Of a DNA stretch of 36,136 nt, positions 2,803 through 36,099 are shown in pieces. The stretch is from the IMG/VR virus record IMGVR_UViG_3300025773_000003, positions 1 to 36,136 of that record. One strand, given 5' to 3'. How positions within the stretch are numbered: the stretch's first letter is position 1; each line of letters opens with the position of its first letter. Below the pieces are notes generated by a model, which saw nothing but the letters and a program-made list of their open reading frames with translations, searched no databases and was not told the origin of the DNA. Position numbers and translations under genes: made by a program. The DNA comes from a virus. Taxonomy: Duplodnaviria > Caudoviricetes.

Positions 2803-3128
2803 TTCGTTAATCTTTCTATTGATCGGTTGCTAGCTTGTTCTGTGCGCCAGATTTCTACTCTAAGTTTTGCTGCTTCAAGTTTCCATTTTAACGCTTCTGC
2901 GTTTTCTGTAGCCACTCCAATGGCTTTACATAAATTCTGATAAGCCTCTGAGCGATACGCTTCTCTTTCTTGCGCCCCAAGACTTTGCTCCGATGATTCA
3001 GACATTTTAATAGCTTTAAGGCTTGACTTAAATGCCTCAAGCTCCGCAAGTTCACCCTTCGCTTTTGCATACGCAGGCGCAGTTTTAAAAATGAAGTCAA
3101 TCGCATCGTTTGGATCATAATCTTTCAT
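2799..3128 (-). CDS. Helical phage protein (possibly UvsY-like)
   Basis: Coupled to neighbours; all-helical with AQEREAYRSEAY and IWRTEQASNR segments; function is a guess. Confidence 0.65.
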   Translation of the reverse strand: MKDYDPNDAIDFIFKTAPAYAKAKGELAELEAFKSSLKAIKMSESSEQSLGAQEREAYRSEAYQNLCKAIGVATENAEALKWKLEAAKLRVEIWRTEQASNRSIERLTK

Positions 3129-4389
3129 TTATTCTTTCCCCTATCCATCGCATTACTGGCACAGCCATAGAATTTCCAAGAGCTTTATATCTTACACCGC
3201 TTGGACAGTTTTCTTTAATATTTGTGTAGTTGTCAGGAAAGCCTTGTAGTCTTTCACATTCAACTTCTGTAAGCCTACGAACTGCCATGTTTTGTATAGC
3301 TACTGCTTCCACAGGTGTTCCGTTACTACGCCATCCGCTACCTGGATTAGCTCTTAATGTTCCGCTAATATCAGATGAGCCAATAGCTAATGGAACATTG
3401 TTGCCACCAGTTCCCCATCTAGCAGTAACAGTAGGGCTTATTTCAATTTCTTTGATTCTGCTATCTGTGCCATGATTTTCATAAGCAACTGCATGGCGGC
3501 TGACTGTATCTAGCGTATTCATAGGGTCACCAGATTTTCCGATGCCTAAACCATTTCCCTTTCCATCGTTATTTCTGTTTGCTCCACCACCTTTATATTG
3601 AGTCGCTTGAGCATGAATTGGAATGGGTTGCATTACAAATAATGGCGCACCAGAATTTATATGTTGATTTTCTAAACCAAGTTTTTCGCCAAATGAAGCA
3701 TTTAATGTATTTGCTTTATCAGCAGGCCATTGAACAACTACAGCGTTACCTTCACTTCTTGCTGGGTTGTAGCTACTGTGGCTTGAAGGGCTTTTTGTAA
3801 TGCAATTGGCAATATCTTTTTTCTCGCTTCTGCCCTTCTTAATATCCCTTCGCAGGCTTTCGGACTCAAATAATACTTCTGCGGCAGATTGCCAACTTCC
3901 AAAACATCCGACAACAAACACTCGTCTGCGTCTTTGGGCGACTCCAAAGTATTGAGCATCAAGCACCCTGTATGCGAACCCATACCCGAGTTGAGCCAAC
4001 GCCCCGAGGAAGGCTCCAAAATCCCTTCCTTCGCCTGAACTAAGGACACCTGGCACGTTTTCCCAAATGCACCACTTGGGTCTAAACTTGTCAAGAATTC
4101 CAACATAGGTAAGGGCAAGATTTCCTCTTGGGTCTTCAAGTCCTTTTCTAAGACCTGCAACGCTAAATGATTGGCATGGAGTTCCTCCGACCAAAAGTCC
4201 AACTGAGTCATTGATGTTCCATTCTTTGTATTTAGTCATATCACCATAATTGGTGACGTGTGGGTAATGATGTGCAAGCACTTGACTAGGAAATTTCTCA
4301 ATCTCGCTAAATCCTACAGGTTTCCAACCCATGTGATGCCACGCAACTGTGGCAGCTTCAATTCCAGAACAAACAGATAGATAGTTCAT
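3115..4389 (-). CDS. C5 DNA cytosine methyltransferase
   Basis: Motifs I (SVCSGIEA), IV (GGTPCQSFS), VI (ENVPG), VIII (QRRRRVF), IX (RRLTEVECERLQGFP), X (YKALGNS). Confidence 0.95.
   Translation of the reverse strand: MNYLSVCSGIEAATVAWHHMGWKPVGFSEIEKFPSQVLAHHYPHVTNYGDMTKYKEWNINDSVGLLVGGTPCQSFSVAGLRKGLEDPRGNLALTYVGILDKFRPKWCIWENVPGVLSSGEGRDFGAFLGALAQLGYGFAYRVLDAQYFGVAQRRRRVFVVGCFGSWQSAAEVLFESESLRRDIKKGRSEKKDIANCITKSPSSHSSYNPARSEGNAVVVQWPADKANTLNASFGEKLGLENQHINSGAPLFVMQPIPIHAQATQYKGGGANRNNDGKGNGLGIGKSGDPMNTLDTVSRHAVAYENHGTDSRIKEIEISPTVTARWGTGGNNVPLAIGSSDISGTLRANPGSGWRSNGTPVEAVAIQNMAVRRLTEVECERLQGFPDNYTNIKENCPSGVRYKALGNSMAVPVMRWIGERINERL
3738..4211 (-). CDS. Alternative-frame polypeptide nested in the methyltransferase gene (M.EcoHK31I beta-like)
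   Basis: 157-codon +1-frame ORF with C5-MTase-like segment RWLNSGM...ECLLSDVLE...KYYLSPKACEGILRRA. Confidence 0.65.
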   Translation of the reverse strand: MTQLDFWSEELHANHLALQVLEKDLKTQEEILPLPMLEFLTSLDPSGAFGKTCQVSLVQAKEGILEPSSGRWLNSGMGSHTGCLMLNTLESPKDADECLLSDVLEVGNLPQKYYLSPKACEGILRRAEARKKILPIALQKALQATVATTQQEVKVTL

Positions 4390-4532: not shown

Positions 4533-4723
4533 TTGTATTCCCCCCTGTTTCCTAATTGATACTGAATAGCATAGTCTTGCAATAATACTTGAGGCAATTT
4601 CTTGCTCGATATGTATTGTCTAAACTTTGCTAATCCCCATTGCGCTCGCCATTTACACAGTTGTCTGACGGCTGATTTGTGCCGAAATTCGTTGTCGTAA
4701 TTGGTAGAATGATTCTCCAGCAT
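4487..4723 (-). CDS. Hypothetical protein
   Basis: Co-oriented ORF bridging the replication gene and the membrane protein; start uncertain. Confidence 0.55.
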   Translation of the reverse strand: MLENHSTNYDNEFRHKSAVRQLCKWRAQWGLAKFRQYISSKKLPQVLLQDYAIQYQLGNRGEYKCWKKPLSQQQGLDI

Positions 4724-5027
4724 AAGGCGTTATTCCTAATTCTCTTGCTTTAGCTAGAGTTAAATCATCCGATGAGAACCACGGCAACTGTGGTTTTTTT
4801 ACAGTTTCTGTTAGATCAATTTCATCTTCCCATCGCCCTTGATTTAGCCAGGTGGCGGGATGAGGAATAAACTCTTTTGAAGTTTCTTTGAGCTTCCAAT
4901 ATTTTAAATGATTTGATATGGCATCAAGAGCTTCTTTTTGCTCTAACTCGCTTAACCGATTCCAGCTTGACTGCGCTGCTCTTTTTGCTACTTTTCTTGG
5001 GTACAGATCCCAAAACGCTTGAAACAT
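4653..5027 (-). CDS. Phage replication protein, C-terminal (replisome-organiser-like) domain only
   Basis: FQAFWDLYPRKVAK...A...W and FIPHPATWLNQGRWEDE motifs; own RBS GGGGAG 7 nt before ATG. Confidence 0.75.
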   Translation of the reverse strand: MFQAFWDLYPRKVAKRAAQSSWNRLSELEQKEALDAISNHLKYWKLKETSKEFIPHPATWLNQGRWEDEIDLTETVKKPQLPWFSSDDLTLAKARELGITPYAGESFYQLRQRISAQISRQTTV

Positions 5028-5184
5028 GAAACATCTCCCCGTTACGTTCCATCATTATAGCTTCTACCAAAGTGCAAGTCAGTCCTTGTTGGACAAGAAA
5101 ATGCAAGCCTTCCCTGTCGTAATGCACATGGACTTCGGCTGATCCATCTTTGTTTTCTTTAATTTTCTTAATTAAAATTTCCAT
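4924..5184 (-). CDS. Hypothetical protein
   Basis: TAATG coupling with the upstream gene; 3' end overlaps the replication gene by 104 nt. Confidence 0.6.
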   Translation of the reverse strand: MEILIKKIKENKDGSAEVHVHYDREGLHFLVQQGLTCTLVEAIMMERNGEMFHVSSVLGSVPKKSSKKSSAVKLESVKRVRAKRSS

Positions 5185-5387
5185 TAATGTTTGCCTTCAA
5201 AAGCAGCAGGCCCAAGCGCATGAATAAGTTGTTTATTAGCCTCTAGTTCACGCCTAGCAAATAAAAGTTGTTCTCGCAATGATTTAATTTCCATGTCTGC
5301 TACTCGTAACATATCAATGAGCATAGACTCCCGTGTTTGAGTGTCAGCGTTGACAAACTCTTTAGCACTTACCATATCTTCAATCAT
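5184..5387 (-). CDS. Small coiled-coil hypothetical protein
   Basis: Strong RBS AGGGGGA; heptad-like sequence. Confidence 0.7.
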   Translation of the reverse strand: MIEDMVSAKEFVNADTQTRESMLIDMLRVADMEIKSLREQLLFARRELEANKQLIHALGPAAFEGKH

Positions 5388-5429
5388 AGTTCCCCCTAGT
5401 TATTATACAAAACCACTTAAAGTATATAT

Positions 5430-5635
5430 AAAACCTTCCTTGCCCTTCTGGTGAGCGAACCTAGCCTACCTAAGTTCGCCTTCAATTCTGCCCATCCGGA
5501 GCCACAGAACCCGCCAGTCGTTCGATGCACAGGCACTAGCTTCGCCACCTGTATTGCGCTATTTCAGCATCTTCCCTCTAGTAACGCTACAACACTTTGA
5601 TCGCTACGATGTCGTTAGAGCCGCCAATCAAAGAA
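5430..5635 (-). ncRNA. Candidate structured non-coding RNA or single-strand origin element (~200 nt)
   Basis: GC-richer intergenic region with six helices whose G-U wobbles form only on the minus strand; promoter directly upstream. Confidence 0.6.
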
Positions 5636-5640
5636 ATAAC

Positions 5641-5668
5641 ATCTTACAACAATTTTAAGACTTTGCAA
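5641..5668 (-). promoter_or_regulatory. Promoter for the structured element
   Basis: TTGCAA(5668-5663)-N16-TAAGAT(5646-5641); same hexamers as the promoter at 6623-6652. Confidence 0.6.
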
Positions 5669-6386
5669 TATCCTGCTCTGCCATATAACAAAAAATACTG
5701 CACTCAATGTCAGGTTCTTTAGGATAATTGCCATCTGTAGGCTTTAGTTCATCCAAATATCTGTCTTTAAATACAGTTTGTTTTTTAAATCTTTCTAACT
5801 TTGCCATGCGGTCAAAATGCTCTGGAAAATCAATTTTAATCTTATTCCAATAGCCCATACCGCCTTTGACACATCCTATGCAATTATTGTTATGGTATCC
5901 AAGTTTATACATCGCTGGAAGCTCAATGTTGGCATTTTTAAGCATAGCCAAGCAATCTTCTTTTCCTAAGCCTTTGTCAATCAATGGAGTCCAAATATCA
6001 ACATCATTATTAGCGTCTATAAAGCGATCTAAGCGGGCTTGCTCCTCTGCGGTATAGCCAAACACTTGACGATCTGTAAGTTGCTCAAAACGCTGTCTAA
6101 TGCGTTTTTTAAGCTCTCTTGTGCAAGGTGCGCCTTTTGGTGTGCGAATAAAGTTTTTTTCAAATACTTTGTAAATTGAACGCTCGTATTTGTCATTGCC
6201 CAATATTTCTATTTTTTGCCCAAACCATTCCTCGCAATCTGCTAAAAATCGCTTATTGTCAGGGTGTTCTTCTTTGACTTCGGTATAAGCAATAATAAGT
6301 GGCAATTTGCCAGCATTTTCGGCAATCGCTAACTTGGTAGCTACCGCACTTGCAGCCCCACAACTAAACCAGCAAACTATTCTCAT
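5655..6386 (-). CDS. PAPS-reductase-like / adenine nucleotide alpha-hydrolase family protein with Cys motifs
   Basis: Degenerate PP-loop WFSCGAASAVA; GAPCT, NNCIGCVKGG, ECSIFC; start 6386 gives an ATGA overlap with the Cro-like gene. Confidence 0.75.
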   Translation of the reverse strand: MRIVCWFSCGAASAVATKLAIAENAGKLPLIIAYTEVKEEHPDNKRFLADCEEWFGQKIEILGNDKYERSIYKVFEKNFIRTPKGAPCTRELKKRIRQRFEQLTDRQVFGYTAEEQARLDRFIDANNDVDIWTPLIDKGLGKEDCLAMLKNANIELPAMYKLGYHNNNCIGCVKGGMGYWNKIKIDFPEHFDRMAKLERFKKQTVFKDRYLDELKPTDGNYPKEPDIECSIFCYMAEQDIAKS

Positions 6387-6616
6387 TGAAGTTCGGGCCA
6401 TATAAGATGCCAGGACTGAGGAAACAAGTCCTTGCGTGTAATTAAACCATGCGACTCCCTTTCAAGAGTTGCCCCTAAAAATGCGTATTGAGATGCTGGA
6501 ATGTTGTTTTTTCGCCACAAACTAACTGCTGCTGGGCTTACCCCTGTTAATTTGGCTACTTTGGCAGTTCCCCCAAGCAAATCAATTATTGCTGAATCCG
6601 TAAGTTTTAGTCCCAT
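6383..6616 (-). CDS. Cro/YdaS-like HTH regulator
   Basis: IIDLLGGTAKVAKLTGVSPAAVSLW HTH and C-terminal DLFP..WHLIWPEL. Confidence 0.85.
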   Translation of the reverse strand: MGLKLTDSAIIDLLGGTAKVAKLTGVSPAAVSLWRKNNIPASQYAFLGATLERESHGLITRKDLFPQSWHLIWPELQ

Positions 6617-6622
6617 TTAGCA

Positions 6623-6686
6623 ATCTTACAACATAAGTAATTATTTTTGCAAAGGTATTGCAAAGTCCTGAATATTGCTTAATAAT
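6623..6686. promoter_or_regulatory. Divergent promoter pair (middle arm leftward, early arm rightward)
   Basis: Minus TTGCAA(6652-6647)-N18-TAAGAT(6628-6623); plus TTGCAA(6658-6663)-N17-AATAAT(6681-6686). Confidence 0.65.
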
Positions 6687-6728
6687 GGAGATATAGCAAC
6701 TTCGCTATGTCATTTAAGGGGAATTTAA

Positions 6729-6932
6729 ATGGATGAGTTGTATCAAGTTATGACCGAAATGGAGCAACGCTTGGAAATAGCGTTAGATAACATGGAATAC
6801 GGCACAGAATTGTCGCAAGACGATGTGGATGTTATTCGTGCTGCTTGCGGTAAACCAAACAATACACGCAACAATCTTTTGCAAACAGTCTTTGATGACT
6901 TTGGCAAAGTATTTGGAGGCAACCATGTCTAA
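6729..6932 (+). CDS. Hypothetical early protein
   Basis: Strong RBS AAGGGGA; first gene of the plus arm. Confidence 0.75.
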   Translation: MDELYQVMTEMEQRLEIALDNMEYGTELSQDDVDVIRAACGKPNNTRNNLLQTVFDDFGKVFGGNHV

Positions 6933-35781: not shown

Positions 35782-36099
35782 TTACCCTTCTGTCCAGCAG
35801 ATGTCCTGCCAGCTCATTAAAAGACACTTTTCGCCATTATGGTTAATAGGTGTGAACTTAAGATACTCCTCTTTGGGATTGTCGTTCATAGTGCCAAAAC
35901 GTACTCGTTGCCCTACGGCAATCGGCATAGCTTCACGTCTTTCGGATGACAATTTCTTGCCAGGCCCTACAGCAACAACAGTTCCCATGTTCTCAGCTTC
36001 TTTGTTATAAACAATTAATACAGAGCTTAAAACACGAACATCTGGTCGGACAATGATCTTATCCGCCAGAGGTCTAAATGATACAATTTCATCAGCCAT
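35782..36099 (-). CDS. groES: GroES/Cpn10-like co-chaperonin (5' part repeated at 1-90)
   Basis: FRPLADKIIV...GTVVAVGPGK...IAVGQRVRF...LLMSWQDI pattern. Confidence 0.85.
   Translation of the reverse strand: MADEIVSFRPLADKIIVRPDVRVLSSVLIVYNKEAENMGTVVAVGPGKKLSSERREAMPIAVGQRVRFGTMNDNPKEEYLKFTPINHNGEKCLLMSWQDICWTEG

Follow-up and report, generated by a model that had tools for sequence, protein, structure and literature searches.

An operon with a stand-alone initiator domain

The window, by which we mean the whole stretch of DNA analysed, is a complete virus record of 36,136 bases with terminal repeats, and its minus strand carries an operon headed by a Cro-like gene (6383–6616). Downstream of cro lie a PAPS-reductase-like cargo gene (5655–6401), which is absent or replaced in close relatives, a conserved structured element of about 195 nt (5439–5634), two small ORFs of 67 and 86 aa without a family (4924–5387), in an interval that varies freely among relatives, and the gene of a 124-aa protein (4653–5027) whose residues 2–79 match positions 179–259 of phrog_270 and which corresponds to a stand-alone C-terminal domain of a phage replication initiator. 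Longer relatives fuse this domain to HTH_36, DUF1376, DUF4373 or Phage_rep_O domains. A scan of 61 ORFs of the window, many of them without a family, found no full initiator, primase, helicase or polymerase, and no P-like loader was found in the 36-kb record.

AlphaFold models the 124-aa protein as two small helical domains (mean pLDDT 89); neither sequence searches nor Foldseek found a PDB relative of the initiator domain, and its nearest named cluster in the Atlas is Phg_2220_C (0.90, 116 shared features), a lead only. Residues 80–124 (window 4653–4790) appear as a small helical appendage that is mostly uncovered in full-length relatives, and their weak SAP/LEM/Rho-N-like fold matches (Z ≤5.6), which lie at background level, may serve as a lead for nucleic-acid binding, not as a finding. 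The gene overlaps both its upstream 86-aa neighbour (4924–5027, ∼100 nt) and its downstream 78-aa neighbour (4653–4723, ∼70 nt), and relatives keep these overlaps. Elsewhere in the window, a divergent switch (6383–6932) has cro on one side and a 67-aa ORF without a family on the other, with no CI-like repressor or integrase among the ORFs scanned; a C5 methyltransferase gene (3115–4389) carries a 157-aa same-strand ORF in another frame (3738–4211), with like overlaps in loci L140, L155 and L170; and a GroES-like co-chaperonin gene lies at 35782–36099.

Upstream of the structured element, a sigma-70-type promoter is predicted on the minus strand (TTGCAA-N16-TAAGAT, 5641–5668), whose +1 would fall near 5634, at the first helix. 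It had been pointed out in an initial annotation of the locus, all of whose named sequences are found where it placed them. The promoter is present and is kept where the upstream gene is cro and not the PAPS reductase (L012, L042, L134), but a consensus promoter scanner run on the window does not list it; that scan found no opposing promoter inside the element either. Of 35 cro loci with a spacer, 29 have a −10-like hexamer 130–149 nt upstream of the RNA, and no such hexamer was seen upstream of the RNA in the helicase-primase loci described below. The element is likely to be transcribed from its own promoter.

Behind the element follows an AT-rich tract (5399–5433, minus strand), a candidate unwinding element that holds a TATAAT (5407–5402) ahead of the ribosome site of the next gene and may be only a promoter. 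The tract, likewise singled out in the initial annotation, is real: the 40 nt 3′ of the RNA exceed the other ORF-free windows of their locus in AT content in 36/36, 13/17 and 37/46 loci of three context classes, an enrichment that may reflect promoters. Whole-genome GC skew tracks the orientation of the genes, its turning point lying near 6.6 kb and away from the RNA. At four-fold sites, 28 of 35 helicase-primase loci, whose genes are related, show a small increase in skew from one side of the RNA to the other (−0.049 to +0.007), with T/A skew moving in the opposite direction and an equally weak control (7/11).

Identity, extent and fold of the RNA

The sole Rfam match in the window is to RF02932, the Betaproteobacteria-1 RNA (cmscan; 5634–5509, minus strand, 89.9 bits, E 1.4e-15), and it spans model positions 1–120 of 120. 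The initial annotation had called for an Infernal search of Rfam; it had recognised no named RNA family in the element and had offered a new class of non-coding RNA as one reading, which is refuted because the score exceeds the gathering cut-off of the family (49.4 bits). The element is a full-length member of a catalogued family, whose record types it as “Gene; sRNA”. Betaproteobacteria-1 RNA presumably stems from the 224-motif survey, where three pseudoknots are reportedly already drawn for it. Searches of the literature on the family and on phage origin RNAs, which covered papers outside subscription, returned no functional study; subscription papers may hold the original description. The main text of that survey (PMC5737381) does not mention Betaproteobacteria-1 by name.

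Conservation in our alignments extends ∼70 nt 3′ of the Rfam model, to about 5440. A covariance model built here, R1, scores 161.7 bits on locus L001. A core pattern collected 119 viral, 70 GTDB and 120 metagenome loci; R1 confirms 66 of the 70 GTDB loci, which are mostly from Burkholderiales, and the homologues occur in Betaproteobacteria and their phages, as expected of RF02932. Blastn with the window element had no match in the phage collection, and a GC-rich copy as query matched one phage and one megaplasmid. From these homologues we made two alignments, A1 (57 sequences, aligned without structure) and A2 (78 sequences); 28 columns of A1 are invariant. A short conserved ORF, which had been named as an explanation that would undo the RNA reading, was rejected because neither strand has an open frame across the whole element, and the lengths of the indels are spread over the three frames (32/26/20).

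In A1, 86.8% of 2641 helix cells are paired, against 68.5 ± 0.6% in shuffled alignments (0 of 500 shuffles as high) and 33–46% for slid-helix controls, and 37 of the 48 pairs show double changes. The helix cells contain 309 G-U and 27 A-C combinations, which fixes the minus strand, as the initial annotation had argued from the wobble pairs. Single-sequence folding of the window element was no better than shuffles (z 0.36 and −0.11) and is uninformative. On the evidence of covariation, the element is a real structured RNA-type fold with three crossing helix pairs.

Helix P1 (5633–5625 with 5603–5595) is paired in 82% of cells in A2, with many double changes, and its loop supplies the 5′ strand of pseudoknot 1 (5606–5604 with 5579–5581, within 5577–5609; 98.2% paired in A1), where pairs 5605/5580 and 5606/5579 are 100% standard and show double changes; in the window, extra pairs of 5609–5608 with 5577–5578 may form around a bulged G. 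P2 (5587–5582 with 5556–5561), drawn from the Rfam model and covariation, is 95.3% paired in A1, and its loop forms pseudoknot 2 (5571–5567 with 5528–5524; double changes in 5/5 pairs in A1, 96% paired in A2). P3 (5552–5548 with 5533–5529; 92% in A2) encloses the invariant UGGCGAAG (5547–5540) and is crossed by P4 (5540–5535 with 5518–5513), the third pseudoknot, which is 99.7% paired in A1 and in 466 of 468 cells in A2. The helices P1, P2 and P4 of the RF02932 model thus all covary here. Beyond that model, folding and A1 define hairpin P5 (5509–5505 with 5490–5486), which is 90.7% paired in A1 with double changes in 4/4 pairs and pairs in the window too, an indel shift lowering the score of the window register to 38% in A2, and folding and covariation define hairpin P6 (5480–5470 with 5464–5454; 91% in A2), with an invariant GGCU at the loop end. 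A triple link of 5550 with 5508 and 5458, first seen in the covariation, was weak in independent pairs and is not claimed.

With homologues collected and covariation checked, five helices proposed in the initial annotation hold (P1, P3, P5, P6 and pseudoknot 2) and three of its elements fail. The closing helix of its three-way junction (5517–5514 with 5451–5448) is 63% paired, its first pair in 6 of 78 sequences. Its CUCUA/UAGAG pseudoknot is 44% paired, and the supported partner of this loop is the one given above (5606–5604 with 5581–5579). It had also compared GCGAAGC with the d(GCGAAGC) mini-hairpin reported in phage origins; the G-C/C-G stem around GAA is not kept here, as 5545/5539 is G-C in 57 of 78 sequences and 5539 co-varies instead with 5514, in P4.

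Co-varying words, a second RNA and genomic settings

The loop of P5 displays a stretch, word A (5489–5501), that recurs in the same sense in the 3′ tail as word B (5441–5453), at the start of the purine run noted in the initial annotation; in the window, 10 of 13 letters are equal. What is new here is that loop word and tail word co-vary without a complementary partner nearby. An exact match of at least 5 nt is present in 72 of 78 copies (mean 6.6 nt, compared with 3.9 ± 0.13 after shuffling of loops and tails). A copy's own tail is the better fit in 29 of 39 disjoint nearest pairs, tied in 10 and worse in none, and in 36 pairs made independent on a tree built without the word columns it is better in 26, tied in 10 and worse in none. 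Genome loci held out from the model match in 25 of 33 cases (mean 5.97 against 4.26 ± 0.18), from 56 of 65 loci parsed and with 24 near-identical copies collapsed to one, several short values being due to mis-parsing; the repeat is also visible in metagenome copies. No reverse complement of the word beyond chance was found in the element or within 600 nt (51 loci). The words lie 43–62 nt apart, a spacing that rules against a phased DNA repeat, and phased multi-copy iterons are absent, there being two short copies only.

The mismatches between the words, counted in 54 distinct in-register pairs, are directional: at position 1, 36 of 37 set a loop G against a tail A, and at positions 2–4 (n=32) there are 15 G/A, 1 A/G, 11 U/A, 3 A/C and 2 C/A, with a conserved U/A mismatch inside the anchor of the word. 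Since 16 of these 32 do not fit a wobble pair and A makes up 163 of 216 letters of the tail, the lean is suggestive only, and it may be compositional.

Where RF02932 is absent, the slot after cro is filled by a second conserved, co-varying RNA of ∼240 nt (e.g., L175:2003–2240, plus strand; seen in L144, L160, L173–L177, L182, L185 and L196–L214), with double changes in 22 of 47 predicted pairs and no Rfam match. It too ends in CACC-N3-GGG, which in this RNA pairs with an internal GGUGAUA. Model R1 leaves no trace in 12 loci with other slot elements (best 5.9 bits), so by this test the second RNA is not a diverged RF02932 copy. Still other non-coding elements occupy the same slot in L193 (3436–3800), L194 (3646–3960) and L183 (2250–2560), those of L193 and L194 sharing their 5′ end with the second RNA and then diverging. 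Most cro loci, though not the window, also hold a long hairpin of 110–130 nt with a U-tract end between the post-cro promoter and the RNA (L175:1870–1990, L182:2500–2625, L183:2100–2215); a 5′ stretch in it is complementary to an internal one, which recalls C4/CI antisense immunity elements, and it has no Rfam match at E up to 5. A conserved TTAAG-N-CTTAA palindrome in the promoter-like stretch after the RNA (L144, L175, L182, L197 and others) is likely to be a Cro operator.

The presence of these RNAs goes with the form of the initiator, a linkage that the initial annotation had proposed to check. The 80 relatives fetched for the 124-aa protein are all stand-alone domains, and 76 of their loci carry an RNA, 58 RF02932 (upstream, same strand) and 18 the second RNA, with none carrying both; one of the remaining four extends just 26 nt upstream, and different elements again are present in three. 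By contrast, none of 56 loci in which at least 70 aa precede the same domain holds either RNA, 45 of them with more than 1.5 kb upstream. With the full-length protein P0049 as query, 4 of 60 loci bear the RNA, the very four with a stand-alone domain, and among 80 DUF1376 loci one does, the query's own contig. In L059 the RNA lies ahead of a 235-aa DUF1376 protein, and L288, a 97% relative, is without it. Host or lineage can explain part of this exclusion, because the full-length-initiator control comes from other phage groups.

The 130 distinct copies with flanks fall into 36 cro/initiator loci (a class enriched by our own query), 39 helicase/primase loci, 34 that we label orphans and 21 others. 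In the helicase/primase class, which encompasses GC-rich phages, prophages and the cultured phage AP1, the RNA mostly follows the primase stop by 5–37 nt. The 21 others include the capsid-operon copies and copies at T7-like primase-helicase genes; in five loci overall the RNA lies ahead of a T7-like primase-helicase. The 34 orphans sit in Burkholderiales genomes (Paraburkholderia, Caballeronia and kin); their flanks are unrelated and include no replication gene, several of the copies are truncated, and 26 have a −10-like hexamer 20–29 nt upstream (orphan loci include L216–L218, L225, L227–L230, L234–L237, L246, L248, L256–L261, L267, L269, L270, L276, L280 and L283). Their promoter-RNA-tail units measure ∼400 bp, number at most three per genome, lie in some cases near LigD or DnaE2 and are in several 3′-truncated. 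In three of the 130 copies the RNA separates the scaffold gene from the major capsid gene, and two of the three precede an HNH gene; this arrangement, often with an HNH gene following, is seen in the podovirus-like loci L048, L061, L075 and L078. Selected ORFs of 52 long metagenome loci were also scanned, giving 15 cro/initiator, 10 helicase/primase and 27 other loci; among the last, the RNA precedes a primase-helicase three times, RecE/RecT six times and a terminase once, and in one locus its neighbour is a stand-alone initiator domain. In L011, L030, L048, L061, L442 and L476 an HNH or EndoVII gene comes immediately after the RNA. The copies hardest to account for are the orphans and those in capsid operons, which may be remnants or point to an RNA with another role.

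Possible functions and comparison with known systems

We assign a probability of roughly 0.4 to the reading that the element is an origin RNA. The RNA would be made from its own promoter, with +1 at the first helix, and word A in its loop would pair with the template DNA strand under word B, a pairing that we infer because, of the strands nearby, the complement of word B alone is bound to change along with word A. The transcript would then stay hybridised as an R-loop and open the AT-rich tract behind it, much as a persistent RNA-DNA hybrid opens the ColE1 origin (PMC5043065). Replication proteins would then be able to load; the stand-alone initiator domain, or in GC-rich phages the helicase-primase encoded just upstream, would be recruited at the RNA, which would substitute for the missing DNA-binding domain and iterons and perhaps also act as primer, as in ColE1. 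The G/A lean would fit an RNA loop on template DNA, because such wobble mismatches are tolerated there. What speaks against an origin is the existence of the 34 orphans among 130 copies, the copies beside capsid, terminase and RecE/RecT genes, the case of L059, and the match of only 10 of 13 nt in the window.

A role in replication of some kind, which the initial annotation had advanced, is probable. It draws on the contrast between 76/80 and 0/56 loci, on the adjacency to primase genes, on the AT-rich tail and on the lack of another replication protein among the ORFs scanned, while L059, with both the RNA and a DUF1376 protein, and the many copies without a replication gene count against it. 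We offer with more reserve than the origin reading itself, and as rather doubtful, the generalisation that phages possess RNA-guided origins, in which interchangeable, unrelated RNAs of ∼200 nt (RF02932 and at least one uncatalogued family) would pick the origin by pairing a freely variable loop with their own template DNA, bring in a half-initiator or helicase-primase, and take the place of the protein DNA-binding domain and iterons of lambdoid origins.

The RNA could also be an origin scaffold without self-pairing, with words A and B as twin sites for one protein, co-varying with its specificity. The context of stand-alone initiators applies equally to such a scaffold; both words often read CC-N3/4-GG after similar stem ends, 5508 and 5458 are the same base in 69 of 78 copies, the second RNA ends in a motif of this kind, and the appendage of the initiator domain has its weak SAP/LEM/Rho-N-like matches (Z up to 5.6). 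These matches are at background level, however, and none of the phage proteins is found beside every copy; close relatives with alike initiator domains have different words, and the one-way G/A lean would have no explanation in a protein site, so that we regard this reading as unlikely. About as unlikely, in our estimate, is a regulatory or trans-acting RNA, either a promoter-driven sRNA or a put/nut-like element, which would attach to RNA polymerase or a different host protein and control early-operon expression. The place after cro is that of nutR/putR, Rfam types the family as sRNA, the orphans in host genomes have their own −10-like hexamer, further copies sit in capsid, terminase and recombination operons, and the invariant core (28 columns in 57 sequences) suggests a conserved host ligand. 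Yet in most cro loci the RNA comes after the terminator-like hairpin and not before it, the exclusion from full-length-initiator loci and the co-varying words are left unexplained, and Rfam gives the window no match to put, nut, C4 antisense or 6S RNAs.

A ribozyme or RNA-processing element, possibly a cassette spread with homing endonucleases, whose words would be alternative substrate or junction sites, is still less probable. Three pseudoknots and an invariant core are marks tied to demanding biochemistry (PMC5737381), and the six loci with HNH or EndoVII directly after the RNA and the scattered orphans would suit such a cassette; most copies, on the other hand, are without an adjacent nuclease, no internal guide complementary to the words was found, the tie to stand-alone initiator domains is left without a reason, and Rfam lists no self-cleaving or other ribozyme in the window. 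The second-RNA loci and the hairpin upstream likewise have no ribozyme, put/nut or C4 match in Rfam. Least probable of all is that the structure forms in displaced single-stranded DNA as a helicase or primase loading signal, of the type of ssi- or PAS-like signals, with the promoter only opening the DNA. Primase genes do adjoin the element, and comparative methods cannot separate single-stranded DNA from RNA motifs (PMC5737381), but 309 G-U (or G-T) helix cells and three pseudoknots suit RNA better, the +1 of the promoter meets the first helix, and the argument from the d(GCGAAGC) hairpin is lost.

The mechanism of the origin RNA that we prefer lends itself to direct testing, thanks to the 3′ domain, the co-variation of the words and the either-or association with initiator type, and an orphan Rfam family gains a concrete and cheap test. 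If the pairing is true, tailed phages of common freshwater and soil Betaproteobacteria would initiate replication with a small folded RNA and not with an origin-binding protein domain, and natural co-variation would reveal the bases that trigger a persistent hybrid, a step that is speculative even for ColE1 according to a review (PMC5043065); a word changeable in step would moreover make for a compact, re-addressable origin. If it is false, the RF02932 model still needs an extension of ∼70 nt and a 240-nt second phage RNA awaits description.

With the RF02932 of the database the element shares the whole-model match, P1, P2, P4 and the host range; it differs in being ∼70 nt longer at the 3′ end (P5, P6 and the co-varying words), and the family record mentions neither the phage replication context, nor the RNA's absence from loci with a full-length initiator, nor its replacement by a second RNA. 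In ColE1, a G-stretch in the RNA pairs with a C-stretch of the template near the origin, a same-sense pair as well. Our proposal has in common with RNA II that a non-coding transcript with its own promoter would, through its fold, control a persistent RNA-DNA hybrid that opens the origin (PMC5043065). It differs in the lack of sequence or Rfam kinship to RNA I or RNA II, in length (∼195 against ∼550 nt), in residing in phages and not plasmids, in a word that varies freely between phages and in that no antisense RNA I was found; the ColE1 type, moreover, has no replicon-encoded initiator, whereas here a partial initiator or, in other phages, a helicase-primase is encoded alongside. A ColE1-type RNA is driven by a promoter and ends at the origin; for the present element, promoter and boundary are predictions. 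The ColE1 type also has a persistent hybrid, RNase H processing and Pol I extension, to which the co-varying same-sense words are the one pointer here.

Plasmid-associated structured motifs of 220–350 nt, ARRPOF, GEBRO and PAGEV, have been proposed to act in replication, one of them in a rep-independent region (PMC5737381); they differ in belonging to plasmids and not phages, and the window has no Rfam match to them. The R-loop origins of T4, oriF and ori(uvsY), consist of a promoter and a downstream unwinding element that form an RNA-DNA hybrid, in a phage that encodes its own replisome. The layout proposed here is the same, with the difference of a conserved folded RNA, for which we know of no counterpart at the T4 origins. 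Lambdoid phages arrange their early replication genes as a cro-O-P module. The lambda ori lies inside the initiator gene (PMC5043065), and the locus shares with the lambdoid module the slot after cro, the phrog_270 C-terminal domain and an AT-rich, purine-leaning tract; in contrast, where that module has a DNA-binding N-terminal domain, an iteron array and a P-like loader, none of these was found in the window, which carries the RNA in that place.
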